From the sequence record NC_019500.1: a stretch of DNA of 64,000 nt; one strand, written 5' to 3'. The notes under the pieces were generated by a model. That model was not told the origin of the DNA. It searched no databases and worked only from the letters and a program-made list of their open reading frames with translations. The position numbers and the translations under genes are program-made. Within the stretch, counting starts at the first letter, position 1. Each line of letters opens with the position of its first letter. Source of the DNA: Escherichia phage Bp7. Shown here one piece after another: positions 6,482 to 62,682 of the stretch.

Positions 6482-6661
6482 ATGAAACTTTTTAAAGATG
6501 TGGTAGTCGGCGAGAGCTTTGTATTGCATAATGGCCAACAACTGATTCGCATTTCTCCTTTGCAAGTTGGGACCGAATTACAACCTGTTAATGCTACAGA
6601 CCTTTATGATTCAACTAAGCGGTTTTTGTGTAGGGCCAAGTGTACAGTGCCTTACTGTTGA
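6482..6661 (+). CDS. hypothetical small protein
   Basis: ATG 6482 in frame with six-frame ORF 6440..6661. Confidence 0.35.
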   Translation: MKLFKDVVVGESFVLHNGQQLIRISPLQVGTELQPVNATDLYDSTKRFLCRAKCTVPYC

Positions 6662-6704
6662 TGAACTGATGGAATTTCTGTTGACGCTGAATAAGGAAAA
6701 TATT

Positions 6705-7962: not shown

Positions 7963-9291
7963 ATGGAATTAACATCTCGTGGTTTAAAAAGTATTATCGA
8001 CAACGAAGCATTGGCTTATGCAATGTATACTGTCGAAAACCGAGCCATTCCGAATATGATTGATGGCTTTAAACCTGTACAACGGTTTGTAGTTGCTCGT
8101 TGTCTTGATATGGCTCGTGGTAATAAAGAAAAATTCCACAAACTAGCTTCTATTGCTGGCGGCGTAGCCGACCTTGGATATCACCACGGTGAAGGTTCTG
8201 CTCAGGAAGCAGGGGCTTTGATGGCTAACACATGGAACAACAACTATCCATTGTTAGACGGTCAAGGTAACTTTGGTTCCCGATTGGTTCAAAAAGCTGC
8301 AGCCTCTCGTTATATCTTTGCACGTATTGGAAGTAACTTTGCAAAAGTTTATAAGGACACAGAATATGCTCCGGTTCATGCGGATGTCGAACATAAGCCA
8401 CCGGCTTTTTATCTGCCTATTATTCCTACTGTTCTTCTTAATGGCGTTTCCGGTATTGCAACTGGCTATGCAACTAATATTCTTCCTCATAGTTTTGATT
8501 CTGTTAAGAAAGCTGTATTGCAAGTTCTTCAGGAAAAACGAGTAACCAAACCCAAAGTGGCTTATCCTGAATTCCGTGGTGAAGTTGTTGAGATTGAACC
8601 TGGTAGTTATGAGATTCGTGGAACGTATAAGTTCACATCCCGAACCCAAATGCATATCACGGAAATCCCATACAAATACGACCGTGAAACATATGTGGCT
8701 AAGGTATTAGACCCTCTGGAAGACAAAGGGTATATCACATATGATGATGACTGTGACGAGAACGGTTTTGGCTTCAAGGTTAAGATTCGTAAAGAATACG
8801 AATTGCCTACTGATGAAAACAAGAAGCATGAAAAAATCATGAAGGACTTCGGGTTAATCGAACGTCGTTCACAAAACCTGACTGTCATTAATGAAAAAGG
8901 TAAACTTAAGGTTTACGAAGATGCAGTTGAACTGATTCGTGATTTCGTTGAGGTCCGTAAGACCTTTGTACAGAAACGTATTGATGGTAAAATCATCGAA
9001 ACTGAAGAAGCTTTCAAACTGGCATTGGCTAAAGCCACATTTATCAAAGATGTTATTGATGGTGTAGTGGTTATCCAAGGTAAGACCCGTAAGGTTTTAA
9101 CCGAAGAATTGACCGGTAATAAAGTCTATGGCGAATATGCCGATAAACTAGTGGCCATGAACATTTTCCATATCACTTCTGACGAAGCCAAGAAACTGGC
9201 CCTCGAAGCCAAGGCTAAGAAAGAAGAGCATCAATATTGGAAAACCACTGATGTTGTAACTGAGTATGTTAAAGATTTGGAGGCTCTATGA
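7963..9291 (+). CDS. 52: DNA topoisomerase II medium subunit (GyrA-like)
   Basis: 442 aa, same length as T4 gp52; motifs AIPNMIDGFKPVQR and active-site region ASRYIFARI. Confidence 0.9.
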   Translation: MELTSRGLKSIIDNEALAYAMYTVENRAIPNMIDGFKPVQRFVVARCLDMARGNKEKFHKLASIAGGVADLGYHHGEGSAQEAGALMANTWNNNYPLLDGQGNFGSRLVQKAAASRYIFARIGSNFAKVYKDTEYAPVHADVEHKPPAFYLPIIPTVLLNGVSGIATGYATNILPHSFDSVKKAVLQVLQEKRVTKPKVAYPEFRGEVVEIEPGSYEIRGTYKFTSRTQMHITEIPYKYDRETYVAKVLDPLEDKGYITYDDDCDENGFGFKVKIRKEYELPTDENKKHEKIMKDFGLIERRSQNLTVINEKGKLKVYEDAVELIRDFVEVRKTFVQKRIDGKIIETEEAFKLALAKATFIKDVIDGVVVIQGKTRKVLTEELTGNKVYGEYADKLVAMNIFHITSDEAKKLALEAKAKKEEHQYWKTTDVVTEYVKDLEAL

Positions 9292-9392
9292 GCCTTGGAG
9301 TCGAGTTCTTGTTACTCTGTATCTTTGCTGTTATCCTAGGCCTGGCGACAGGCTTAGCTATAGGTTTAATAGCAGCCAACTTTAAAAAGTAA
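9288..9392 (+). CDS. small membrane peptide (34 aa) overlapping gene 52 stop
   Basis: MSLGVEFLLLCIFAVILGLATGLAIGLIAANFKK; ATGA overlap with gene 52. Confidence 0.3.
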   Translation: MSLGVEFLLLCIFAVILGLATGLAIGLIAANFKK

Positions 9393-9414
9393 GGAACCTT
9401 CGGGTTCCTTTTTT
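9393..9414 (+). terminator. rho-independent terminator (GGAACC-UUCG-GGUUCC then T6)
   Basis: perfect stem, UUCG loop, TTTTTT. Confidence 0.65.
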
Positions 9415-9432
9415 GGGTTTAGTGCAAAAAGA

Positions 9433-9461
9433 GTTTACATCTGCTTTAAACATGATACTAT
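9433..9461 (+). promoter_or_regulatory. T4-type early promoter, member of the near-identical cassette gtttacatctgctttaaacatgatactatagacctatcaa
   Basis: GTTTAC 9433-9438, TACTAT 9456-9461, 17-bp spacer. Confidence 0.6.
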
Positions 9462-9481
9462 AGACCTATCAAAACAACAGA

Positions 9482-9715
9482 GTGAAATGGAGATACAAAA
9501 TGAACAAGATGAAAAATACCCAAAACGCTACCGTCCGTTTCGGTAAAGTTAAACCTGGCATGAATGCTAAACGTAAAGAACTAGTTGAAAAACTAAATTG
9601 GTTGGAAGTAGAGATAAATTCCTTAGTAGTTCGCGGCTCTAATGGTCGTGAACTGGAAAAACTCCGTGAAGGAAAAGCTGCTTTAATCGCCGAGATTAAA
9701 GACCTATCAATCTAA
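9482..9715 (+). CDS. hypothetical small basic protein (start 9482, 9500 or 9509)
   Basis: 77-aa ORF downstream of early promoter. Confidence 0.4.
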   Translation: MKWRYKMNKMKNTQNATVRFGKVKPGMNAKRKELVEKLNWLEVEINSLVVRGSNGRELEKLREGKAALIAEIKDLSI

Positions 9716-9756
9716 GTAATTTTTACCAGAGCTCTTGAAAAAGAGCTCAAAATAAA

Positions 9757-9785
9757 GTTTACTTCTGCTTTAAACATGATACTAT
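9757..9785 (+). promoter_or_regulatory. T4-type early promoter (second copy of the cassette) preceded by hairpin gagctctt/aagagctc
   Basis: GTTTAC 9757-9762, TACTAT 9780-9785. Confidence 0.6.
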
Positions 9786-9820
9786 AGACCTATCAAATAA
9801 ATGGTTATCGGAGATACAAA

Positions 9821-10455
9821 ATGTCTAAAATTACTTATATCATCAAAGCTTCTGAAGACGCCCTGAATGAAAAAACGGCTTCGATCTTAGTACATATCAT
9901 CAAGCATAACTTCATCACTTCAGGCGAAGTCCGTGAAGCCCTGAGTGAGCAATTTAGTGCTGCGGTAGTTAACTCTAATATCGGTGTATTAATTAAGAAA
10001 GGATTCATCGAAAATCTGGTGACGGACTAGTGGCTACAGGTGAAGCAATGGACCTAGTTCAAAAAGCTGCTGACTTGTTCGCTTCTGAAAATGCTCCAGA
10101 GATGTTGGAAAAACGTAAAACGCGTAGTTCACGTGGTGTTACTCCTGAAATGGTAACACTGGCTGATGAAGTTAAAGCTTTATTAGAAGACCGTATCGAG
10201 ATTCGTGAAATTGCTGAAAACCGTAGCAACCTTGAAGTTCGATTCGCTAAACGTACCAACGGTATTCGTCAAATCGAAGTCCGTCGTGATGGAATGATGC
10301 GTATCTTCGGTTATAATATGACTGATAAAGAAAAACAAGTGTTTACTTCCTTGAATCTTGATGTTAAGATTAAGACTGGTGGTAAGAATACTTATATCGA
10401 CTTCCAAAACGTATCATCTGAAGTTATCAAAACCGTAACCAACGCAATTATCTGA
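9821..10455 (+). CDS. motA: MotA middle-transcription activator; reading frame needs a 1-nt correction at the A-run 10011-10014 (ORFs 9821..10030 and 10030..10455)
   Basis: N-terminal ORF MSKITYIIKASEDALNEKTASIL...NSNIGVLIKKGFIE and C-terminal ORF ...SENAPEMLEK...KRTNGIRQIEV...MRIFGYNM match T4 MotA domains; the +1 frame across the junction reads KSGDGLVATGEA, continuous with the T4-like sequence. Confidence 0.75.
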
Positions 10456-10469
10456 CTGAGGAAATTATT

Positions 10470-10799
10470 ATGAACAAGCTGAATATTGTTAATGAACTTC
10501 GTCGTTGTGCAGAACCTACTCAAGAAGGTTGGGACATTTGGTACCATGGCGCTTATCTTGGAACTATTGTCAAGGTTAAAGCAGGTAAATACTTAATCAT
10601 CCGTGGTGGTTCTGAAGCTTCTATGGGAATTCGCAAAAACTTTATGGCGGCAATCAGCACCTTTGTCCCAGCGGCTTATGAAGTCTATAAAGCGGACTAC
10701 AAAGAATACCAAGAATCACAACCGGTTATCCGTTCAATTGGTGTTAATAAAGCTCAACAGAAATCTTTATGGCAGCGTATTAAAGGATGGTTCAAATGA
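10470..10799 (+). CDS. hypothetical protein (109 aa)
   Basis: ORF with SD (tgaggaaatt) upstream; no recognised motif. Confidence 0.45.
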   Translation: MNKLNIVNELRRCAEPTQEGWDIWYHGAYLGTIVKVKAGKYLIIRGGSEASMGIRKNFMAAISTFVPAAYEVYKADYKEYQESQPVIRSIGVNKAQQKSLWQRIKGWFK

Positions 10800-11134
10800 T
10801 TCCGATGGAACTTAACTGGGACGGTGAAGGTCATTCCCTTAAATTGATTGAAGAACAACGTAATGATTGGGACGAGCGTGTAGCTTTGGTAAGCGGTATT
10901 AAGAAAATTTACCAACTCGATCTCCAGATTGATAACGTTTATCTTGAATTTGGTATGCAGTTATTACGATTTCTTGAGATTATTTTTATTGAAAAGGTAA
11001 ATATAACTTCGTATGGCGAGGGCCAAACAGTTAATATTAAATTATCATCCTATTATAAAGGTGATTTAATTGAAACTGCCACCAAAATTCAAGAATTTGC
11101 TAAAGATAACGGCCATAAGGTGATTTTCAAATGA
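10787..11134 (+). CDS. hypothetical protein (115 aa)
   Basis: overlaps preceding stop. Confidence 0.45.
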
Positions 11135-12203: not shown

Positions 12204-12479
12204 ATGACTAAAATTGAAATTGTTTCCGAAATTGCTACTATTGTTTCCATTTTGATTAAAACGGATTGTGAAGACATCATGCAACGTCGTGATGAGTTTA
12301 TTGCCTTTTTGAATGAGTTAGGTATTCGTAATGAACATGGAAAGGAACTTAATGGTTTGTCTTATAACAAATTATTTAAGTCATTAACTGAAGATGAACG
12401 TGATACTCTTATTGAGCAATTTAATGAAGGGTATGAAGATATACACCGCTATCTAATGATGTATACCTCCAATTTTTAA
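12204..12479 (+). CDS. asiA: AsiA anti-sigma-70 factor
   Basis: 91 aa; IVSILIK, FIAFLNE and C-terminal LIEQFNEGYEDIHRYLMMYT closely match remembered T4 AsiA. Confidence 0.8.
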   Translation: MTKIEIVSEIATIVSILIKTDCEDIMQRRDEFIAFLNELGIRNEHGKELNGLSYNKLFKSLTEDERDTLIEQFNEGYEDIHRYLMMYTSNF

Positions 12480-13157: not shown

Positions 13158-13949
13158 TTAATACTTTCGTATTATAACCAAGAGCCATAGATAGCGCCTG
13201 TAGCGCCCCACGTTGGAGACTTCCGAATACCGCTCTACCAGGAGCACCACCGCCAGATCTAGATAAGTGATTATCCCATCCTCTCCGCCCCGACCTCCAG
13301 CATCACCGCCATTGCCTCCGCCGAATTGGGAAGTGTAACCGGCACCACCCGGGGCGTCATAACTAGCATTACCACCCGGCCAATTAACGCCGCCTCCACC
13401 GATGCCAAATGGTCTACCACCACCGCCACCTGCTGTAGCATTTGGCGCCCAGCTATTCTGTAATGACACTGCACCACCACCGCCGCCGCCTGATGCAATA
13501 ACGCCATAGTTCCAAATACGAAGTCTTCCGCCGATATCATTTTGGATTACATCGCCGCCATTTGTGCCAGGGTTTCCGTTTACAGTACCGTTACCACCTC
13601 GTCCCCACATATGAACTCCACCATGAATATTCAAAGTAACATATTCGTTAGGGGTATCACCGTACATAAAGAACAATGGAACATCTTTAGTATATGATAC
13701 TAAGTTGCCTGTGATATTAAACACTATAGGAGCACCACCAGCTTCAAAACAACGGTCTCTAAACCACTGCCCGTTAAAGTTATGGTCTGCTCCGAGCGTG
13801 TGAATAATCTCACGAGACCGACCTGCAAATTGAGACATCCAAGATGGGTTACCAAGACGCAATTCTCTAGAAGCGGCCGTCATCCAACGTTGACCTGTTT
13901 CAGCCACTGCTGATGTTCCAATCCAACCAGGAATTCCTACTACTGCCAT
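13158..13949 (-). CDS. 38: tail-fibre adhesin gp38 (T2-type, glycine-rich motifs)
   Basis: 263 aa directly after gene 37; several poly-Gly segments ([22 protein letters not shown]) separated by variable stretches, as in T2/Ox2-type gp38. Confidence 0.75.
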
Positions 13950-24770: not shown

Positions 24771-25420
24771 TTAAGATTCGCATGCCACCAAACAATAACC
24801 GTATGGTGAACGGCAAAAGTGTATATTCCCTATATTTGATGTTAAAGCATCATTTCAACGCCAAATACGACGTTATCAAATACAACTGGGTCATGCGAAT
24901 CTCTGATACGGCTTATCAAAAACGTCGTGACAAATATTTCTTTGAGAAATTGAGTGATAAATACACTTTGAAAGAGCTTGCTCTTATATTCATGAGTAAC
25001 TTGGTAGCTAACCAAGACGCATGGATTGGCGACATCAGTGATGCTGACGCCTTAGTCTTTTACCGAGAATATATCGGTAGACTTAAAAGAATAAAACAAG
25101 TTTTTGAGGATGATATCAAAAACATTTATTATTTTAGTAAGAAAGTGGAAGTTCAAGCGCTTTCTGAAATTTTTGATTATAATAAAAAAGTTAACTCGAG
25201 CTATATTTTTAAGCTCCTTCAATCGAATGTTATTTCATTCGAAACGTTTATTTTGCTTGATTCATTTATGGATATAATTGATAAGCACGATGAAAAGACT
25301 AACGATTTAGTGTGGTCTAAGTATTCGACTAAATTAAATGCTTACAAAAAAATTCTTATAGTAGATTCTATTGAGGCTCGTAAATTGTTCATTGAAACAA
25401 TTAAGGGTTGTAAATTTTGA
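24767..25420 (+). CDS. 59: gp59 helicase-loading protein
   Basis: 217 aa (same as T4); KSVYSLYLM.K.H.N.KYDVIKYNW.MR.SD.AYQKRRDKYFF.KLS.KY.LKELALIF.SNLVANQDAWIGDISDADALVFYREYIGRLK almost identical to T4 gp59. Confidence 0.9.
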   Translation: MIKIRMPPNNNRMVNGKSVYSLYLMLKHHFNAKYDVIKYNWVMRISDTAYQKRRDKYFFEKLSDKYTLKELALIFMSNLVANQDAWIGDISDADALVFYREYIGRLKRIKQVFEDDIKNIYYFSKKVEVQALSEIFDYNKKVNSSYIFKLLQSNVISFETFILLDSFMDIIDKHDEKTNDLVWSKYSTKLNAYKKILIVDSIEARKLFIETIKGCKF

Positions 25421-26052
25421 ATATAGTTTATAAAATGACTTGGCTTAATCGTCAGGCTAATAATATTAAGCCGTTTTCGTACATAGGTTCTAAAACTAAT
25501 TGTACTTTTGAAAATGGCGTGATTATTGACTGTAAAGGTAAAGAGTATTGGACCTCTTGCGAGCAATCAAGATTTAAAGAGGCCATCGAAGAAGAAAAAC
25601 CTATTGTTGAAATTTTGGCTATAACGCCATTTGATATTGTTATTAATATTGAACGTTCAGAACAATTGGAAGTTCAAGCTAGAGATAATGATGATTATTT
25701 TAATTTGGTTTATGCCGGTGGCGGATTTGGAGTCTTTGGATGCACTCACCCAGCCAAACGTCCTGAAGTTAGAGCCCATATGAAAGCTGCTAACTATATG
25801 AATCAACCCGATTACCGTCCTTGGAAAACTTCTAGAGCAAACCCTTTAGATTGGATGCTTAGTGATATTGCTTATACTAATTATTGTATAATTAATTCTA
25901 GTGGAAGAGCTTGTGGATGGAGGCGTCTCATTAACTCTGGTATAAATGTTAGTGAAACTACATCAAAGAGTATGATTAAACAATTTAATGAGGGTTGGGT
26001 TCCTAATGATGACCCTGAATTCATTAAGTTAAAAATGCTTTATTCGAAGTGA
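25417..26052 (+). CDS. ORF at the segG position; possible degenerate GIY-YIG-type homing endonuclease (start TTG 25417 or ATG 25435)
   Basis: inserted between 59 and 32 where T4 carries segG; N-terminus IVYK...PFSYIGSKT loosely resembles GIY...YIG; overlaps gp59 stop. Confidence 0.4.
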   Translation: MNIVYKMTWLNRQANNIKPFSYIGSKTNCTFENGVIIDCKGKEYWTSCEQSRFKEAIEEEKPIVEILAITPFDIVINIERSEQLEVQARDNDDYFNLVYAGGGFGVFGCTHPAKRPEVRAHMKAANYMNQPDYRPWKTSRANPLDWMLSDIAYTNYCIINSSGRACGWRRLINSGINVSETTSKSMIKQFNEGWVPNDDPEFIKLKMLYSK

Positions 26053-27536: not shown

Positions 27537-27798
27537 CATGACTAAAGATGATTTCCTGGATGCAGTAGAAAAAGCCAGCGAACAATTCGAAGTTATGGGT
27601 GTACGAGTCCATAAAGACAGAAATTACGGGCTCGATATCCAAACGTATTCATTATGGCTTGTAGGTGAACATAGTCTTGTAACCACCTTAGTTATGGGTG
27701 TTGATGCACAACCTTTACTGGTTAAATTCAGAAGTATGGAAAAAGCTACCAAAGAAATGATTAAACTTGGTAAATGGCTCGATAAAATTCAAAAATAA
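27526..27798 (+). CDS. hypothetical protein (about 87-90 aa; frd.2 position)
   Basis: overlaps upstream stop; alternative ATG 27538. Confidence 0.45.
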   Translation: MEFNMTKDDFLDAVEKASEQFEVMGVRVHKDRNYGLDIQTYSLWLVGEHSLVTTLVMGVDAQPLLVKFRSMEKATKEMIKLGKWLDKIQK

Positions 27799-27800
27799 GC

Positions 27801-27829
27801 GTTTACATCTGCTTTAAACATGATACTAT
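27801..27829 (+). promoter_or_regulatory. T4-type early promoter (third near-identical cassette copy)
   Basis: GTTTAC 27801-27806, TACTAT 27824-27829; 40/40 identical to 9433-9472. Confidence 0.6.
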
Positions 27830-27861
27830 AGACCTATCAACTAATGAGTGAGGAAAATAAA

Positions 27862-30194: not shown

Positions 30195-30233
30195 CATGCT
30201 TAACAGGTTCTATGATAGAATAATTATAGAACC
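30195..30233 (+). promoter_or_regulatory. candidate MotA-dependent middle promoter for nrdA inside an 8-bp inverted repeat ggttctat/atagaacc
   Basis: MotA-box-like TGCTTAA 30197-30203, -10 TAGAAT 30216-30221 at 12-bp spacing; a TATAAATA late-promoter match also lies at 30181-30188. Confidence 0.4.
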
Positions 30234-32561: not shown

Positions 32562-33236
32562 ATGTCTACAGTTTTTAATACTACCCCAGTTGATGTTTTA
32601 GTCGAGCCGATGTTCTTTGGTTCAGGATTAGGTATCGCCCGTTATGATATCCAACGTCATAAAGTGTTCGAAGAGCTTTGTGAAAAGCAACTATCATTTT
32701 TCTGGCGTCCAGAGGAAGTTAACTTGATGATGGACTCTGCGCAGTTAATAAGCTTCCAGAGTTCCAACAAAATATATTTACCAATAACTTGAAATATCAG
32801 TCGCTTTTGGACAGTATTCAGGGCCGGGCTCCTTCTGCTGCACTCCAAGCCTTGATTTCTGACCCTAGCCTTGATACATGGGTGGCAACATGGACCTTTA
32901 GTGAAACTATTCACTCGCGTTCGTATACCCATATCATGCGTAACCTCTATACAGACCCATCTAAGGTATTTGATGAAATTCTGTTAGATGACGCTATCAT
33001 GAAGCGCGCTGAATCCATTGGTCGTTATTATGATGACGTTATTGAGAAAACTAGATATTGGCAGAATGCTAAAGCTGATATTGAGTACCAAAAAGAAATT
33101 AACGCAGACGAAGATGATATTGAAGATGCCATAGAGCATGAGATGTATTGGAAACGTGAACTGATGCGTTCTCTTTATCTCTGTTTGCATGTTATCAATG
33201 CCTTAGAAGCTATTCGTTTTTATGTATCTTTTGCGT
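32562..33236 (+). CDS. nrdB: ribonucleotide reductase small subunit, exon 1; apparent 1-nt frameshift near 32723-32750 (ORFs 32562..32792 and 32789..33238)
   Basis: N-terminus ...FFWRPEEV in one frame; downstream NrdB motifs [35 protein letters not shown] in the -1 frame; exon ends with U at 33236. Confidence 0.8.
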
Positions 33237-33320
33237 AAAATGCGCCTTTAAACGGTAACGTTTATCGAAAACTCCTTTAATTGCTGGAAAGTCCTTTATA
33301 GGAAAACTAGCAGCCAAGGT

Positions 33321-33354
33321 TTTGCTTGCACCTTTAATTAGTATAATATAAATA
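33321..33354 (+). promoter_or_regulatory. candidate middle (MotA-box-like + TATAAT) and late (TATAAATA) promoters upstream of the intron endonuclease ORF
   Basis: tttgcttgca 33321-33330, TATAAT 33342-33347, TATAAATA 33347-33354, SD aagagga 33367-33373. Confidence 0.35.
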
Positions 33355-33381
33355 TGATTATACTTTTAAGAGGATGCACAA

Positions 33382-34188
33382 TTGAACTATAGAAAAATTT
33401 GGATAGATGCTAACGGACCTATACCTAAAGATTCTGATGGAAGAACATACGAAATCCATCATAAAGACGGTAACCGTGAAAATAATGATTTAGATAATTT
33501 GATGTGCCTTTCTATACAGGAACATTATGATATACATTTAGCTCAAAAAGATTACCAGGCTTGTCATGCTATAAAGCTTAGAATGAAATATTCTCCTGAA
33601 GAAATTTCTGAATTAGCTTCTAAAGCCGCAAAATCTAGAGAAATCCAGATTTTTAATATCCCTGAAGTACGAGCTAAAAATATTGCCTCTATTAAATCTA
33701 AGATAGAAAATGGTACATTTCATCTTTTAGACGGTGAAATACAGCGTAAATCTAATTTAAATAGAGTTGCATTAGGTATACATAATTTCTCTAGAGGAGC
33801 CCATGCAAAAGTTAAAGAACGCAATATTGCAGCTATAAAAGAAGGTACTCATGTATTTTGCGGTGGTAAAATGCAGTCAGAAACTCAATCAAAACGGGTA
33901 AATGACGGTTCACATCATTTCTTGTCAGAAGACCATAAGAAAAGAACATCAGCAAAAACATTAGAAATGGTTAAGAACGGGACCCATCCTGCACAAAAAG
34001 AAATCACATGTGATTTCTGCGGTCACATTGGTAAAGGTCCTGGATTTTATCTAAAACATAATGACAGATGTAAATTAAATCCAAATAGAATTCAATTGAA
34101 TTGTCCATATTGTGATAAGAAAGATTTATCACCATCAACATATAAACGATGGCACGGCGACAATTGCAAAGCAAGGTTCAACGACTAG
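33382..34188 (+). CDS. HNH-family homing endonuclease (I-TevIII-like), intron-encoded; apparent TTG start
   Basis: 268 aa; N-terminal HNH motif EIHHKDGNRENNDLDNLMCLS..EH and C-terminal Cys/His-rich region (CDFCGH, CPYCDK); lies in the nrdB intron as I-TevIII does. Confidence 0.8.
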   Translation: MNYRKIWIDANGPIPKDSDGRTYEIHHKDGNRENNDLDNLMCLSIQEHYDIHLAQKDYQACHAIKLRMKYSPEEISELASKAAKSREIQIFNIPEVRAKNIASIKSKIENGTFHLLDGEIQRKSNLNRVALGIHNFSRGAHAKVKERNIAAIKEGTHVFCGGKMQSETQSKRVNDGSHHFLSEDHKKRTSAKTLEMVKNGTHPAQKEITCDFCGHIGKGPGFYLKHNDRCKLNPNRIQLNCPYCDKKDLSPSTYKRWHGDNCKARFND

Positions 34189-34324
34189 TCTTCGGACGTA
34201 GGGTCAAGCGACTCGAAATGGGGAGAATCCCTCTGGGATTGTGATATAGTCTGGTCTGCATAGTAATATGTAGCAGTTCATAAGAGAACGGGTTGAGAAT
34301 TAGCGAGCTCAATCGAACATAACG

Positions 34325-34827
34325 GTACCTTTAACTTCCATAAGAACATGGAAATCATGGAAGGTAATGCTAAGATTATGAAGTTCATTGCACGTGATGA
34401 ACAGCTCCACCTTAAAGGCACCCAGTACATTATTCGTCAGCTCCAACTTGGTACTGATGGCGACGAATGGGTTAAAATTGCTCAAGAGTGCGAACAAGAA
34501 GCAGTTGATATTTTCATGGAAGTTAACCGTCAAGAAAAAGAATGGGCCGCTCACCTGTTCAAAGATGGTACTTGCCCTGGATTAAATACTCAGAACATGG
34601 GTGCTTTTGTCGATTACCTGACAGTTTCTCGTATGAAGCAATGTGGCTTACCGTGTCCTATTACTGATGCTCCTACTCGCCATCCTTATCCTTGGATTCG
34701 CGAATACCTGAACTCTGATGCTGTACAGGCTGCTCCTCAGGAAGTGGAAATCAGTTCTTACCTTGTAGCACAAATTGATAACGATGTTGATGAAAAAGTA
34801 ATGGCATCGTACAAGAAATATTTTTAA
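34325..34827 (+). CDS. nrdB: ribonucleotide reductase small subunit, exon 2
   Basis: ELMEGNAKI...ARDE.LHL.GTQ...C-terminal APQEVE.SSYLV.QID; in frame after splicing. Confidence 0.8.
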
Positions 34828-37775: not shown

Positions 37776-38075
37776 ATGAAAGAATTATTAGAGAATTACA
37801 TCAAGTGTTCAGACAATTACGTGGATTTATGTTATGGATTGAAAATATCTGAACATGATGAAGATGCGGCGCATCTGGCATTAGATACCGCAGGTAAAGC
37901 CTTGCGTAAAGCAGCTAAAGCCCAGGGCGTTGATATGGCTGAACTAAAGAAACATTTAATTATGTTTATCTCTGCTAACGTCTCTAGCCGGTCGGGTAAC
38001 AAAGCTGTCGCAAAATCAGGTGAAGAACGCACTGAACTACGCATTCAGCTCCTCAAAACCTCTGTTGGGAATTAA
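37776..38075 (+). CDS. hypothetical protein (99 aa; pseT.1 position)
   Basis: ATG 37776 after SD gaggaaa. Confidence 0.45.
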   Translation: MKELLENYIKCSDNYVDLCYGLKISEHDEDAAHLALDTAGKALRKAAKAQGVDMAELKKHLIMFISANVSSRSGNKAVAKSGEERTELRIQLLKTSVGN

Positions 38076-41067: not shown

Positions 41068-41339
41068 TGAAATTTCGTCTAGTTAAATTTTCAGGTCTGA
41101 ACTCAAAAGGTGAAAGCTTAGTAGCCTATTCAGTAGAATATAAAAAGTACTTTTTCTCTCGATGGAAATCGTACTATAAATCTGATTGGGTTTATGCCAA
41201 CATGAATTACAAAACAGTACCTATTCTTGATAATTGCCATAGCCTATTAAGAGCTCTAAAAGAGCGTAACGCAACCACTATCAAAACTATCTGGAATAAT
41301 TATGATTTTAACCGAACAAGAAACAATTCGTCTCCGTGA
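41067..41339 (+). CDS. hypothetical protein (90 aa)
   Basis: ATGA overlap with cd. Confidence 0.4.
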   Translation: MKFRLVKFSGLNSKGESLVAYSVEYKKYFFSRWKSYYKSDWVYANMNYKTVPILDNCHSLLRALKERNATTIKTIWNNYDFNRTRNNSSP

Positions 41340-41601: not shown

Positions 41602-41628
41602 TATGCTTTAAGAATAGCGTGTTATTAT
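41602..41628 (+). promoter_or_regulatory. candidate MotA-dependent middle promoter for gene 31
   Basis: MotA box TGCTTTA 41604-41610, -10 TATTAT 41623-41628 at 12-bp spacing. Confidence 0.45.
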
Positions 41629-47574: not shown

Positions 47575-49659
47575 ATGACCGAACAATTAAATGAAGTGTT
47601 TGAGTCCGAAGGCACACTGCCTACAGTAAACTTGAACCCAAAACTTAAAGTACCCCAGATTTGGAAGATTGGTGACGCAGAATCCCAATTAGTGGCGCGT
47701 ATGGTATCCTACGCTTCTGAAGGTGATGCTATTAAACAGGTTAAGATGGGTGATAAATATGCCCACGTTATCCTTATGAGCCTTTCAGCTAAAGGTTCGC
47801 CTGCCGAACTTAAAGGTGGCCTAGGCCCTACTCCCGTAGATGCGATTAATACTATTTTTGATGTGGTTTATGACCAAGTTAAAAAGCTTCGTATGGATGC
47901 CGTGATGTTCCGTTTCCCTACTAAGAAAATGAAAGGTCAAGGCCCTATCGTTCAACGGATTATCCAACGTTTGGTAGCACAGAAAACAGGTGGACGTTTT
48001 AAAGTAGTTCCGGCTATGTACCAATTTACCGGTAAACATACTTATATCCTAGTAGTTCGTAAACAGGCTGATATCGAAGATATCAAAGGTATGCCAGGAA
48101 TTAATGCCGAATTATACACTAAGGTAGATTCTGATGTCGGTGAAGTTTATATTTCTAAAAAAGAAGGCGTGCAGGTTACTAAAGAAACTGCTATTGCCGG
48201 CAGTATTGCTAAAGTTGAAGAACGTCGCACTGATAAAATGGTTATAACCAAGACTAAGATTTCTCGTCGTGCCATTGCAGCAAGTCAATCGTTAGAATCT
48301 TATCGTAATGAAAGTGAACTGTTTAAGAAATATGAAGCAAATGCCGTAGATTTTAATAAACCTGCAACAGCTCCATTAATCCCTGAGGCCCAGGAAATGG
48401 TTACTAATAACAATTCTCCCGCGGCTAAAAATAAGGTTGCTAATATAGTAGCTGAAGGTACTGCTGAAGAATTGCATTATGATTATAAAATGTTTCCTCT
48501 TCACGGTATAGGTGAAATCCAAGAGAAAATTAAAGATAAAATTCTTGCGGCCATCAAAAACGAACCTTTGACATCTGTTAAAGCTCTAGAAAAATATGCC
48601 TCTGCTATTAATACCGTTTTCGAAGAATACAAAGGTGAATGGCTGGCCCGGCATAACAAAACTCGTAAAGGCCAACCTGACGACCTCTGGAATGAATTGA
48701 CCGATGCGAAGTGGAAAGCCGCCAAGACCAAGTTCATTAAAAAACGTGTATATAGTTTTGCCGGTGTAGGTGGCGGTATTATGGTCGATATTACTATTGC
48801 TCGTGAGGGCTCTAAATATACCCCATCACAAAAGCGCGGCATCAGAGAATATTGTGGCTCAGGATATACAGACATAAATAATCTTCTTTTAGGACGCTAT
48901 AACCCTCAGAACTATGAGGTTATGGGCGAAAAAGATATCGAATCTGCAGTTAATAATTTGGATTCTGCTTTTGAAAATGGCGACCGTATACCAGAAGGCA
49001 TCACAGTTTATCGTGCACAGAGTATGACTGCTCCTATATACGAAGCACTAGTTAAAAATAAAGTGTTCTATTTCAGAAATTTTGTATCCACTTCATTGAC
49101 TCCTATCATTTTTGGACGTTTTGGTGTTACACACGCCGGTATCGGTCTTTTAGAACCGGAAGTTCGCGATGAATTGACAGTCGATAAAAATGAAGAAGGA
49201 ATAACTATTAATCCTAATGAAATAAGAGCATATAAAGAAAATCCTGATTATGTTAAAGTTCAAATAGGATGGGCTATTGATGGGGCTCATAAAGTTAATG
49301 TCGTATATCCAGGAAATCTCGGAATAGAAACTGAAGCCGAAGTTATTCTACCGCGTGGATTAATGGTCAAAGTTAATAAAATAACAGATGCTTCTAATAA
49401 TGATGGAACAACATCTAGTAATACAAAACTCATCCAAGCTGAAGTTATGACAACAGATGAGCTTCAAGAATCTGTGGTATATGATGGTGACGTACTAATG
49501 GAAACCGGCGAGTTGGTCGTATATAAAGATGACTTCGATACTTCCGAAAGCCCTGTATCTTTTGATTCATTTGTTAAATCTACACGGTTTGATGTATTGC
49601 CTCTTTTGGCTTCATGCATAGACCTCTATGACATCCCAGAAAAATTCATCCAAGGGTAA
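47575..49659 (+). CDS. alt: Alt-like ADP-ribosyltransferase, paralog 1
   Basis: 694 aa (T4 Alt 682 aa); C-terminal R-S-E ART motifs (KRGIREY, FVSTSL, ETEAEVILPRG); N-terminal region shared with paralog 2. Confidence 0.8.
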   Translation: MTEQLNEVFESEGTLPTVNLNPKLKVPQIWKIGDAESQLVARMVSYASEGDAIKQVKMGDKYAHVILMSLSAKGSPAELKGGLGPTPVDAINTIFDVVYDQVKKLRMDAVMFRFPTKKMKGQGPIVQRIIQRLVAQKTGGRFKVVPAMYQFTGKHTYILVVRKQADIEDIKGMPGINAELYTKVDSDVGEVYISKKEGVQVTKETAIAGSIAKVEERRTDKMVITKTKISRRAIAASQSLESYRNESELFKKYEANAVDFNKPATAPLIPEAQEMVTNNNSPAAKNKVANIVAEGTAEELHYDYKMFPLHGIGEIQEKIKDKILAAIKNEPLTSVKALEKYASAINTVFEEYKGEWLARHNKTRKGQPDDLWNELTDAKWKAAKTKFIKKRVYSFAGVGGGIMVDITIAREGSKYTPSQKRGIREYCGSGYTDINNLLLGRYNPQNYEVMGEKDIESAVNNLDSAFENGDRIPEGITVYRAQSMTAPIYEALVKNKVFYFRNFVSTSLTPIIFGRFGVTHAGIGLLEPEVRDELTVDKNEEGITINPNEIRAYKENPDYVKVQIGWAIDGAHKVNVVYPGNLGIETEAEVILPRGLMVKVNKITDASNNDGTTSSNTKLIQAEVMTTDELQESVVYDGDVLMETGELVVYKDDFDTSESPVSFDSFVKSTRFDVLPLLASCIDLYDIPEKFIQG

Positions 49660-51714
49660 ATGATGGAAAATTTAAACGAAGTTTTTGATAGCGATTCCGC
49701 TAAAAACTATCCAGTAATAAATCTTAAACCAGGTTCCGGTATCCCACAGATTTTCTCTATTAAAGCACCGGGTAATGATAACCTGGTTGCTCGTATGGTA
49801 TCTTATGCGTCTCAAGGAGACGCTATTAAAATGGTTAAGCCGGGCGACAAATATGTCCACGTTATTCTAATGAGTTTGTCAAGCAAGGGTGCTCCGGCTG
49901 AACTCAAAGGTGGTCTTGGTTCTGACCCACTCGGTACGCTGAATACCATTTTTGATACTGTATACGAACAAGTAAACAAACTTAAAATGGATGCGGTTTT
50001 ATTCCGTTTCCCTACCAAGAAAATGAAAGGTAAGGGCCCTACTGTTCAGCGTGTATTAGCTCGTTTGGCTATGGCTCGTACTGGTGGTAAGTTTAAAGTT
50101 GTTGATGCCATGTACCAATTCACTGGAAAACATACCTATGTTCTTTTAGTACGTCGTGGCACTAATATTGAAGATATCAAGGGTATGCCTGAAATTGATG
50201 CCGAACTTTATACTAAGGTTGAGTCCAAAGTTGGCGAAGTTTATGTTTCTAAGGAAACCGGCCAGTCCGTAAGTAAGGCCGAAGCTGTCTCGGCAAGTAT
50301 AGCTAAGGTTGAAGAGAAACGTACTGATAAGGCCGTCATTACCAAGACTAAGATTTCTCGTCGTGCTATTGCTATGTCGCAATCCTTAGAATCGTCACGA
50401 TTTGAAACTCCTATGTTTAAGAAATTTGATTCTAATGCTGCTGAATTGAATAAACCGGCTACGGCTCCTTTAATGTCAGAAGCAAATGAAATAAAGGTTA
50501 TTTCTAATTCTTTCTTGGCTTTAGAAAATACCATTAGTGCTAATACTGGTGGTATGTCGTTTAAAGACAACCTTCTTATTCCAGAAGATAAAATGGAAGA
50601 AATTAATACCGACATAAAAATGAGAGCTTTTGAGAAATTACATGGATTAAATGTGACTTCAGTAAAAGCCCTAGAAAATTATGCTTCAGTGGTTGATGAC
50701 GTCATCGAAGAATATAAAGGTCCTTGGCTTCAAAAGCTAATGGCTCAACATTCACACCTAGGTTATCACGAAGCAGTCGAGTTGGCTGAAAATTCTTGGA
50801 ATGCTATAAAGACCAAAATTATTCAACGTGAGCTGCGTGTTTACGCTCTTACCGCCGGTTGGCAATTGCATTCTATTATAGAAAATAAAGACGCGTCTCG
50901 TTATACTCCTGCCCAGAAACGTGGTATTCGTGAATATGTTGGCTCCGGTTACGAAGATATGAATAATGTTCTTTTAGGTCTCCATGACCCGAATGTAAGA
51001 AGCAGTATTCTGACTAATGAAGACATAGAAAAAGCTATCAATAACTTAGATTCTGCTTTTGAAAATGGCGAACGTCTACCACCAGGTATTACTCTTTATC
51101 GTTCCCAACGAATGATTCCTGATATTTACTTGGCTATGATTAGCAATAAAGTATTCTATTTCAGAAACTTTGTTTCAACTGCGATATATCCGAATATTTT
51201 TGGTACATGGATGACTGATTCTGGTGTTGGTCTTTTGCCTGACGAAAAACGTCGTGATGTTGCATTAGACAAATCGGATGAAGGTTTAGTATATTCGAAT
51301 AAAGATACTTTAGTAGGTATTGGTTGGGCCTTTACCGGTACAGATAAGGTAAATGTCGTTTTACCTGGTGGAGACTTGGCTCCTTCTAACGAAATGGAAG
51401 TAATTCTTCCTAGGGGTTTGATGGTCAAAATCAATAAAATTACAGATGCTTCATACAATAACGGAACTACTCGTTCTAACAATAAGTTCGTTCAAGCCGA
51501 AGTAATGACTGCAGACGAACTTAATGAAGCCGTGGTGTACGATGGTGATGCTCTGATGGAAACAGGCGAACTAGTTGTCTATAAAGAGGGTAATGAGCTT
51601 TCTTTTGATTCTTTTGTTTCTAATGAGAAGAAAAAGAAATCAGACAGAGGTCTTGGCTTGTTAGCTTCTTGTATAGATATCGACGCTCTCCAGTATAAAT
51701 TTGTACAAGGGTAG
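49660..51714 (+). CDS. Alt-like ADP-ribosyltransferase, paralog 2
   Basis: 684 aa; N-terminal region closely similar to paralog 1 (ARMVSYAS.GDAIK.VK.GDKY.HVILMSLS.KG.PAELKGGLG); ART motifs KRGIREY, FVSTAI, NEMEVILPRG; starts 1 nt after paralog 1 stop. Confidence 0.8.
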   Translation: MMENLNEVFDSDSAKNYPVINLKPGSGIPQIFSIKAPGNDNLVARMVSYASQGDAIKMVKPGDKYVHVILMSLSSKGAPAELKGGLGSDPLGTLNTIFDTVYEQVNKLKMDAVLFRFPTKKMKGKGPTVQRVLARLAMARTGGKFKVVDAMYQFTGKHTYVLLVRRGTNIEDIKGMPEIDAELYTKVESKVGEVYVSKETGQSVSKAEAVSASIAKVEEKRTDKAVITKTKISRRAIAMSQSLESSRFETPMFKKFDSNAAELNKPATAPLMSEANEIKVISNSFLALENTISANTGGMSFKDNLLIPEDKMEEINTDIKMRAFEKLHGLNVTSVKALENYASVVDDVIEEYKGPWLQKLMAQHSHLGYHEAVELAENSWNAIKTKIIQRELRVYALTAGWQLHSIIENKDASRYTPAQKRGIREYVGSGYEDMNNVLLGLHDPNVRSSILTNEDIEKAINNLDSAFENGERLPPGITLYRSQRMIPDIYLAMISNKVFYFRNFVSTAIYPNIFGTWMTDSGVGLLPDEKRRDVALDKSDEGLVYSNKDTLVGIGWAFTGTDKVNVVLPGGDLAPSNEMEVILPRGLMVKINKITDASYNNGTTRSNNKFVQAEVMTADELNEAVVYDGDALMETGELVVYKEGNELSFDSFVSNEKKKKSDRGLGLLASCIDIDALQYKFVQG

Positions 51715-60175: not shown

Positions 60176-60403
60176 TTAGAAATCTTCCTCTTCCTCGTCG
60201 TCCATCGACTCCAATTCAGCTCTCTTACCAGCCAATGCATCACGCACGCTAATATCATCCGAATCACGAAGTTCGGCTTCCTTACTACGAGTTTTGTAAT
60301 ACTTTTCCAATTCCTTCAGACCATCCATAGTCTGACAAGAACCAATTTTAGCCATGAAGCTTTCAATAGATGCTTCCTGAATAACTTCTTTAAAGGTTTT
60401 CAT
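60176..60403 (-). CDS. UvsW.1 small acidic protein
   Basis: 75 aa (T4 UvsW.1 76 aa) with acidic C-terminal tail DDEEEEDF. Confidence 0.6.
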   Translation of the reverse strand: MKTFKEVIQEASIESFMAKIGSCQTMDGLKELEKYYKTRSKEAELRDSDDISVRDALAGKRAELESMDDEEEEDF

Positions 60404-61182
60404 AATATTTCCTCGAAAAATTTGGTAACCATTTTACCGTAATGCACATTAGGATAACCGGCTTTAATGGCTTCTTTTGTAAATTTACCAACTTTAAGCT
60501 TTCCTGTATTTATCCAAAGCTCTTTAAGCTCATCATACATTAACCAGTGTGGATATTTCTTAGCCAAAGTAGCTTGCCAATTTTTAGAATGGTCCTCAGA
60601 CCTAAACGATTTCTTTACACCTTTATTGGCTTTGCCAGCTTTTGAACACGTTTCATAATCTCCGGCTTTAATAGGTGTAAATCCTTTCATTGCTTTAGAC
60701 CTTTTGGCTATGGTCTCTTTGGATTGCTTGGAGCCTTTATTTTTGGTCCAAGCCTTTTCTAAAGCTTTTAATTTGGCTTCTGTTAATCCAACTTTAGCCA
60801 TAGCTTTTCGGTGTATTTCTCTTCGTTCATCAGTCCATTCATAAGAACCGTTTGTATTACCAATCATGGCTTCGCTTATTAATCTAGAAGCATTTTCTTT
60901 TAAAATGGAAATAGACCTAGAGCTTATCTCATTTAATCTTTTGCCACATGTCATACCAAATGCGGCACGCCATAATTTTCCACCTTGAGCTTTAGCCAAG
61001 ATTATATGGCCCAAAATATGTTCCCTAATAGTCAATGCAACTAAATTGTTAGGGTCATCGGAACCACCTATCGACTTAGGAATAATATGATGAATTTCGA
61101 TTTTACAGGGCGCAGTAGCTTTGGTCCATCCTCTGGACCTAGCATTCTCTATTAAATCATCGTAAATTTTCTGATAATTCAA
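60400..61182 (-). CDS. free-standing HNH homing endonuclease inserted between uvsW and uvsW.1
   Basis: 260 aa; N-terminal HNH motif CKIEIHHIIPKSIGGSDDPNNLVALTIREH; basic C-terminal DNA-binding-like region; start and stop overlap both neighbours. Confidence 0.75.
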   Translation of the reverse strand: MNYQKIYDDLIENARSRGWTKATAPCKIEIHHIIPKSIGGSDDPNNLVALTIREHILGHIILAKAQGGKLWRAAFGMTCGKRLNEISSRSISILKENASRLISEAMIGNTNGSYEWTDERREIHRKAMAKVGLTEAKLKALEKAWTKNKGSKQSKETIAKRSKAMKGFTPIKAGDYETCSKAGKANKGVKKSFRSEDHSKNWQATLAKKYPHWLMYDELKELWINTGKLKVGKFTKEAIKAGYPNVHYGKMVTKFFEEIL

Positions 61183-62682
61183 AGCTGCACCTCTTTCATA
61201 ACATAATTAAATTTCTCGTCGGCGTATCGTTGTATACGTTCCAATCCATGTTTCAGGCAATAATTTAAATGAACATATTTCTTTTTAGAATCTTTAGATT
61301 TAGGGCGGACTCCCATATCATCCACGAGGTCCCAGACTTGGGCCACTTGTTTGCTATCGTGCTTACGTAGAACACGCCCAATTGTTTGCAGAACAATGAT
61401 TTTAGATTTTACGCCGTGAGCAAATACAACGTGGTGAAGGTTCTTAACGGAAATACCAGTAGAGAACACACCATAACTTGCCACAACAATAATACCCTTA
61501 CCATTTTCCGCCATTACTTTCAGAGCATTACGCGTTTCGGTATTAACTTCACCTGATACGTAATAAACTTCTTTATGTTGCTCTTTAACCATTTCAAAAA
61601 GAGTTTTACCGTGTTCGATGTTTTTAAACATCAGGAATACGTTCTCTTCTTTCTTAGCGAGTTTAACAGCTAAATTAGCAACCCATTTATTACGACGAGT
61701 AGCCTTAGTAATGACCTTGATTTCTGATTGGTAATCTTTACCTTTCATCTTAACAGTGAATTCGTCTGGGTATCGAAGGAAAATACTGTTGATTTTAAGG
61801 TCGGTAACCTGTCCTTCTTCCATTAACTGGGAAGTGGATACCGGCTTAAACACATCACCAAACAAACCCATATATTGCATTAAATTAGCTTTACCATCTT
61901 TTAAAGAACCAGACAAACCGAATTTAAACATACAGTTGGTTAGGCCTTCGATGATAGTAGAAATAGATTTACCTGTAGCCAAATGGCATTCGTCGTTCAT
62001 AAACATACCGAACTGAGCAAACCATTCTTTAGGTTGCTTGATAGCAGTTTGATAAGTTGAAACGTAAATCATTGCATCAGAATCACGAGCAGTACCTGAA
62101 CGAATACCAAGCATTGCTGCTTTAGGGAACAATCGATAATCGATGAAGTCATTAATCATCTGGTCGACAAGTGCAGTAGTAGGAACCAGAATAAGGATTT
62201 TACCTTCATAGTTCTCAACGTAATATCGACTCAGGAGCGCCTGGATTAATGATTTACCTGCGGATGTAGGTAAATTCAGAATTGCACGACGTTTTGTCAG
62301 GCCGTTGTATACGGCTTCATTCTGATACCAATGAGGCTCAATCTTGGTAGACCCTGAATAAATTTCTTGAGAAGCTACCCATGAATCAAAATCTTCACGA
62401 GAAATATCTTCCTGTTCAAGAATACGCGGGTCAATCCACAGAGAATATTCAAATTGTTCAGCGAACTTTTTAATTTGAGGGACAAGTCCATAAGGGCAAG
62501 TTTACGGCAGTTACGTAATCTAGAAGAAGAAGACTTCCATCCCATTGCCCATAACGAAATTTAGGGTTGAATTTATATCCATCGGCTTCAAAGCTAAAAT
62601 AGTCTCTGAGTTCGTAGAATGTGGATTCATCACACTCAATACGAACATGACTAAAATTATCGAAATGTACTTGAATTTGCAT
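61179..62682 (-). CDS. uvsW: UvsW helicase (SF2); reading frame needs a 1-nt correction at the G-run 62494-62496 (ORFs 62470..62682 and 61179..62159)
   Basis: N-terminal ORF VHFDNFSHVRIECDESTF.ELRDYFSFEADGYKFNPKFRYG.WDG matches the T4 UvsW N-terminus; the -1 frame continues with PYGLVPQIKKF...NLPTSAGKS (Walker A), DECH, QTIGRVLR. Confidence 0.8.

Follow-up and report, generated by a model that had tools for sequence, protein, structure and literature searches.

A Single-Nucleotide Frameshift at a Short Adenine Run Splits motA in the Deposited Genome of Escherichia Phage Bp7 and Very Probably Reflects a Sequence Artefact

The motA Locus and Its Regulatory Context

The stretch of DNA analysed here, referred to as the window, comprises 64,000 nt of the Escherichia phage Bp7 record NC_019500.1 and belongs to a JS98-like T-even phage of the genus Dhakavirus. 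Its first 25 kb are about 95% identical to LHE83 and ABTNLS3, and the phage collection contains no record that is identical to the window. The gene order around motA is that of Dhakavirus relatives, with the gp52 topoisomerase gene, small ORFs, motA and arn.4, followed further downstream by asiA. As deposited, motA appears in the ORF listing as two ORFs in different frames, one of 69 aa (9821-10030) and one of 141 aa (10030-10455). The features of this locus, and those of the other disrupted genes considered below, are given in Table 1.

Table 1. Features at the motA locus and at further frame breaks in the window.
Feature	Position	Strand	Evidence or description
Small conserved ORF, paired window-unique 1-nt indels (+G 6621, -C 6673)	6621..6673	+	tblastn and alignment
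T4-early-type promoter-like sequence (GTTTAC, 17 nt, TACTAT), upstream of motA	9757..9785	+	read from sequence
motA Shine-Dalgarno GGAG, 7 nt upstream of ATG	9810..9813	+	sequence
motA 5' fragment	9821..10030	+	codons 1-64 authentic MotA, then 5 out-of-frame codons and TAG
motA lesion, A4 run versus A5 in relatives (GAA AAA TCT)	10011..10014	+	alignments
motA 3' part in the other frame, codons 66-211 and stop	10015..10455	+	start given by the ORF lister is GTG 10030
asiA, MotA co-activator, intact	12204..12479	+	tblastn, 91/91 aa, 100% identity to reference, single frame
gp38 tail-fibre adhesin, C-terminus over three frames	13158..13949	-	tblastn and DNA alignment
nrdB exon 1, 1-nt loss TTT to TT at 32745-32746	32562..33235	+	tblastn and alignment
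Group I intron in nrdB	33236..34326	+	Rfam RF00028 at 34033-34273, 34 bits (below the gathering score of 50), E=1.3e-6
HNH homing-endonuclease ORF, I-TevIII type, 268 aa, inside nrdB intron	33382..34188	+	Pfam HNH_3, 5.9e-13
uvsW N-terminal scrambled patch, net +7 nt	about 62496..62515	-	alignments

Judged from the nucleotide sequence, the expression signals of motA are intact, comprising an early-type promoter and a GGAG Shine-Dalgarno sequence. The promoter is presumed to act as such on account of its resemblance to T4 early promoters. In T4, the Shine-Dalgarno sequence of motA is a RegB cleavage site (PMC2988021).

The partners of MotA are likewise in place. In addition to an intact asiA, the window contains 24 MotA-box-like promoters (TGCTT-N13-15-TANNNT), against an expectation of 10.1 +/- 3.2, and a count of 24 was reached in 0 of 100 shuffles. 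Recognisable MotA-box middle promoters had been proposed upstream of nrdA, gene 31 and uvsY. The sites upstream of nrdA (30197-30221) and gene 31 (41604-41628) are confirmed, but the uvsY site carries TGCTG instead of TGCTT.

The early-type promoter of motA overlaps a 32-nt block (9765-9796) that is present three times in the window. The identical copies of this early-promoter block (CTGCTTTAAACATGATACTATAGACCTATCAA) start at 9441, 9765 and 27809, in the regions 9391-9472, 9729-9796 and 27809-27840. A 77-aa ORF (9482-9715, PHROG 6200), which JS98 contains and which QL01 and ABTNLS3 lack, lies between two of them, and both of these are preceded by a hairpin (at 9391-9410 and at 9729-9749). The layout at 9391-9796 presumably resembles promoter-early/stem-loop (PeSL) cassettes, for which a role in the modular shuffling of genes in T4-type phages has been proposed.

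The Lesion and the Restored MotA Protein

The original prediction that motA is split by a 1-nt frameshift at an A-run is borne out by alignment: the window reads GAAAAT where QL01, JS98, ABTNLsp5 and WG01 read GAAAAAT, and it is thus one base short. Apart from the missing A, the motA gene body is identical to that of QL01. The sequence as given contains no continuous motA ORF of about 211 codons, and one is obtained only when a single A is inserted. The insertion yields a continuous 211-aa MotA containing ...KKGFIEKSGDGLVATGEA..., in which GFIEKSGDGLVATGEAMDLVQK is the peptide across the junction. The restored protein is identical in amino-acid sequence to WG01 MotA, and its residues 1-205 align with E=3.4e-55 to T4 MotA as chain M of 6K4Y, the cryo-EM structure of the sigma-appropriation complex, confirming that an extra A recovers a T4-like MotA. 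In a tblastn search with MotA as query, residues 1-64 are matched at 98.4% identity, while residues 65-211 show 100% amino-acid identity to ABTNLS3 MotA.

The domain assignments show where the protein is interrupted. The Pfam profile MotA_activ (PF09114) is matched in the first ORF over profile positions 1-63 of 95 (2.5e-23, above the cut-off) and in the second ORF over positions 70-94 with 20.8 bits, which, scored alone, is below the cut-off of 26.1. In the restored protein, the match is contiguous against 1I1S and 1BJA. The second ORF also contains MotCF (PF09158), the C-terminal double-wing DNA-binding domain (4.7e-14, 52.7 bits, cut-off 25), and the C-terminal domain matches the structures 5JLT and 1KAF. 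The 3' part of the gene therefore covers the final third of the activation domain as well as the linker and the DNA-binding domain MotCF. The N-terminal and C-terminal domains had been described as lying in separate frames; the two frames do differ, but the break does not fall between the domains. It follows codon 64 and lies within the 96-residue N-terminal activation domain, which corresponds to residues 1-96 in 1I1S and 1BJA. The break puts D67 and Q76 of the activation domain out of frame, two residues that are needed for the contact of MotA with H5 of sigma-70 (PMC2988021).

Downstream of the break, the shifted frame is strictly conserved. All nucleotide differences in this part are synonymous, both in comparison to WG01 (8/8) and to ABTNLsp5 (13/13), and there are no amino-acid differences relative to either WG01 or ABTNLS3. 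A decaying pseudogene was considered and rejected, as the hallmarks of relaxed selection, i.e., non-synonymous changes, stops and further indels, are not seen downstream of the motA break. As far as these comparisons can tell, motA bears no sign of decay or of adaptation to the break.

Distribution of the A4 Allele

When 50,697 phage records were searched by blastn with an 81-nt query centred on the run, 864 records matched and 0 of the 864 were 100% identical; in 60 of 60 of the matches listed, the aligned segment exceeds the query by one base. Over 801 nt around the lesion, at least 80% of the length is matched in 49 phage records, the best of which are 95-98% identical (QL01, WG01, JS98, ABTNLsp5 and others). 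IMG/VR contains no match to the exact A4 pattern, and a length-tolerant pattern retrieves four contigs there, all of them with A5. In JGI metagenomes, the length-tolerant pattern detected no A4, but also no A5 or A6 copy, so that this search includes no positive control. In an exact-product look-up across 153 billion indexed gene positions, the truncated 69-aa product is not on record.

Four Logan short-read contigs encode exactly the arn.4 protein of the window, the gene of which directly follows motA. Two of these contain motA in full length, with all 211 codons intact, a third contains a partial motA that includes the A-run and reads A5, and the fourth begins downstream of the run. The contig SRR20950837_217013 (986 nt) aligns to window positions 9927-10911 (985 nt) with 0 mismatches, and the fifth A accounts for the only gap. 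This short-read contig stems from an unrelated sample and not from the sample of the sequenced phage itself. Because a contig with otherwise identical flanks carries the fifth A, sequence comparison identifies A5 as the ancestral state at zero flanking divergence.

Recoding and Split-Protein Explanations

The original prediction had also considered a slippage-dependent motA. In such a case, full-length MotA would be produced from the A4 sequence by recoding at the A-run, either through a programmed -1 frameshift of the ribosome or through slippage during transcription. The two ORFs overlap at the run, and a -1 shift at GAA-AAU would indeed restore the frame. However, C-GAA-AAU is not an X-XXY-YYZ slippery heptamer, and the folding energy of the 80 nt that follow, -17.6 kcal/mol, is no better than the shuffle mean of -17.6 (z=0.01). 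Transcriptional slippage is supported at homopolymer runs of about 7-9, and the run of four A is far below this length. Programmed frameshifts are normally conserved among relatives, but the two-frame motA is not, since every relative inspected encodes MotA in a single frame. The lack of a slippery heptamer, the short run, the unremarkable fold and the lack of conservation argue against the proposed slippage, and recoding at this site is extremely improbable.

A functional split MotA has next to no probability either. Here, MotA would be made as two separately translated fragments, with GTG 10030 or ATG 10048 as the start of the second one, which would either reassemble or act independently. 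Some start-like signals are present, as the TAG codon (10028-10030) overlaps GTG (10030-10032) and AGGTGA is located just upstream of ATG 10048. Yet these signals are ordinary coding sequence and also occur in relatives with an intact motA. The split would furthermore fall at residue 64 of the 96 that make up the five-helix activation domain, instead of in the inter-domain linker. It would leave a DNA-binding fragment without activation function, and according to the work of Gerber and Hinton 1996, as cited in PMC2988021, such a MotA fragment binds DNA but does not activate.

Additional Frame Breaks in the Window

The reading frames in the remaining window were assessed at the protein level, by translating the 99 CDSs of ABTNLS3 that span the same region and comparing them to the window by tblastn. 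Most of these reference genes are found in a single frame with 95-100% identity. Frame breaks that are unique to the window occur in motA, gp38, nrdB exon 1, uvsW and a small ORF at 6621/6673, and in each broken gene the conserved protein continues in the shifted downstream frame.

Within the window, consensus errors are probably indicated most clearly by the three-frame C-terminus of gp38. In comparison to the closest relative, NHEP11, tblastn places aa 1-223 in frame -3 (97.8% identity), aa 221-244 in frame -2 (87.5%) and aa 245-259 in frame -1 (80%), and DNA alignment reveals window-unique deletions of 1, 1 and 2 nt at about 13175-13290. The record as written predicts a non-functional receptor-binding protein.

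For nrdB, a disruption of the frame at a short mononucleotide run had been proposed. This applies to the loss of one T in exon 1, which is unique relative to KIT01 and ABTNLS3, but the second disruption of the gene is an ordinary group I intron with an HNH ORF. Residues 1-61 are encoded in frame 3, residues 63-225 in frame 2 with 98.8% identity to the reference, and residues 227-392 resume at 34327.

The proposed break of uvsW at a mononucleotide run was not confirmed. Instead, the gene contains a scrambled patch of about 40 nt that is not located at a mononucleotide run, and 12 of 12 relatives among the matches listed are 7 nt shorter across it. Just upstream of the patch within the gene, the conserved sequence WDGRIRLL is changed to WDGSLLLL by three additional substitutions. 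As a consequence of the lesion, the first 56 residues are cut off from the remaining 438 codons, which stay open and conserved. Separate uvsW and uvsW.1 ORFs are normal, and the reference has the same arrangement.

In the small conserved ORF at 6621/6673, the pair of indels shifts about 17 codons, after which the frame is restored. Unique 1-nt changes at 38060 and 41291 alter the last codons of two small genes. The changes in the length of short runs that are unique to this record are A5 to A4 in motA, T3 to T2 in nrdB, A3 to A4 in the spacer between nrdA and nrdB, and T2 to T1 at 41291. When independent assemblies covering the other lesions were sought by exact look-up, gp37, inh and holin t were not on record, while the look-up of nrdA retrieved only IME281 and QL01, in both of which nrdB is divergent.

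The protein-level frame test was also applied to a control pair of similar divergence within Dhakavirus. Of the ABTNLS3 proteins compared to LHE83, 77 had matches and only one showed a frame break, which corresponds to an A5/A6 polymorphism near the C-terminus with an allele that is common to LHE83 and the window. The change from A6 to A5 at 27796, located near the 3' end of a small ORF and altering its C-terminus, at first resembled a further error; LHE83 shares the allele, which identifies it as a natural polymorphism. A raw count of CDS indels with a length that is not a multiple of three gave 51 for the window and 75 for the control genome, but this nucleotide count is uninformative because it is dominated by compensating gap pairs that the aligner introduces in divergent patches. 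The valid control is the protein-level frame test.

Origin of the motA Lesion

The split of motA is very probably an assembly or base-calling artefact in the deposited sequence. The following observations argue for this explanation. First, at least four well-conserved genes in 64 kb carry unique breaks, with the conserved protein undisturbed in the shifted frame. This pattern is characteristic of consensus errors and would not be expected of a phage in which the functions have been lost. Second, the A4 allele is unique, the frame downstream of it is perfectly conserved, and an otherwise 100% identical contig has A5. Third, the control Dhakavirus pair shows none of these breaks. The slight preference for an artefact in the original prediction is thus strongly supported by the unique A4, the A5 contig and the other unique breaks, including those in gp38. 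One A of the five-A run would have been dropped during base-calling or assembly, and the phage itself would most likely produce an ordinary full-length 211-aa MotA. Together with the intact AsiA, this protein would activate the MotA-box middle promoters across the window. From the same comparisons, it may be inferred that the frame breaks in general are errors rather than mutations. Two of the broken genes, motA and the gene for the essential adhesin gp38, are of great importance for growth. A phage with a truncated gp38 adhesin in addition to the motA break would be unlikely to form plaques, and it is also unlikely that a phage carrying all these defects could have been isolated and propagated for sequencing.

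Indel errors in assembled phage genomes are typical of 454, Ion Torrent and nanopore assemblies. The isolated 1-nt changes at short runs, with the conserved protein continuing in the shifted frame, are similar to such errors, whereas the small deletions in gp38 and the scrambled patch in uvsW are not. The fact that the lesions are not all homopolymer changes speaks against an artefact, and because those in gp38 and uvsW are non-homopolymer, there is no single sequencing-chemistry signature for all lesions. The gp38 and uvsW lesions point to a locally poor consensus quality rather than to one clean error mode. In addition, the 6621/6673 pair restores the frame, as selection on real mutations would, although two chance errors could have the same effect.

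A real and very recent loss-of-function frameshift in motA, acquired by the sequenced stock during laboratory propagation or present in a sub-population, is unlikely, but it has some observations in its favour. Short A-runs are natural hot spots of replication slippage, and the lack of divergence in the flanks of the lesion is as compatible with a very recent event as with an error. A phage with such a frameshift would be expected to grow poorly, depending on early transcripts that read through and on the remaining expression of its middle genes. In T4, nonsense and temperature-sensitive mutants of motA are viable, displaying a DNA delay and tiny plaques, and a real motA defect is for this reason not impossible, which also counts against an artefact (PMC2988021). 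However, the motA deletion is lethal in T4, and the viability of the point mutants is attributed to their leakiness (Hinton 2010, PMC2988021). Leakiness is not expected from a frameshift at codon 65, which, unlike the viable T4 alleles, takes two thirds of the protein out of frame. If the lesion were real, the phage would resemble the motA-defective T4 mutants (amG1, tsG1 and the motA deletion), with AsiA and the middle promoters intact.

The A4 allele, moreover, is found nowhere else, and the breaks in gp38, nrdB and uvsW, with their undecayed downstream frames and their absence from the control pair, would have to be real as well. A genuine loss of motA would thus require either that the other lesions are also real or that motA is the sole true mutation among demonstrable errors. 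It is highly improbable that A4 is real and that a Dhakavirus phage grows without functional MotA, or with traces produced by spontaneous frameshifting, and expresses its middle genes via read-through from early promoters. If it were so, this phage would be a natural exception to what is seen in T4, where the loss of motA is lethal. A real lesion would bear on the dispensability of MotA/AsiA-dependent sigma appropriation in JS98-like phages, but there is little reason to expect this.

With an artefact as the preferred explanation, the main value of the analysis lies in quality control. The record needs polishing before the gene content of gp38, motA, nrdB and uvsW is interpreted, as automatic annotation would label these four genes as pseudogenes or fragments. 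Such an annotation could mislead comparative or host-range analyses, the latter because gp38 is the receptor-binding adhesin.

Mobile Elements and Variation in Gene Content

The intron in nrdB is a normal mobile element and not an error. It is approximately 1.09 kb long, exon 2 starts at 34327, and the ORF that it contains matches PHROG 12324, "intron-like DNA endonuclease", with 1e-189. At the gathering threshold, Rfam detected nothing in the whole window, and the nrdB intron was seen only in a focused E-value search. In ABTNLS3, KIT01, QL01 and LHE83, nrdB is uninterrupted, and in LHE83 a free-standing homing endonuclease is annotated between nrdA and nrdB. A MotA-box-like promoter (33323-33347) is located inside the nrdB intron, just upstream of the endonuclease ORF.

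Two additional homing-endonuclease ORFs are present in the window. One, on the minus strand at 60400-61182, encodes a 260-aa HNH homing-endonuclease-like protein (Pfam HNH, PHROG 655) and is inserted between uvsW and uvsW.1, which in ABTNLS3 overlap by 4 nt. The other, a 211-aa ORF on the plus strand at 25417-26052 (PHROG 7504, 9e-114), is located between gene 59 and gene 32; it occurs in LHE83 but not in ABTNLS3.

The alt family shows copy-number variation, with two tandem alt-like ADP-ribosyltransferase paralogues at 47584-51711 on the plus strand, in comparison to three in ABTNLS3. Gene 52, encoding the medium subunit of topoisomerase II, lacks the first 17 codons (51 nt) of its counterparts in ABTNLS3 and WG01 (7963-7980, plus strand), resulting in a protein of 442 instead of 459 aa. 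The same length is annotated in QL01, and the short start appears to be a natural N-terminal length polymorphism.
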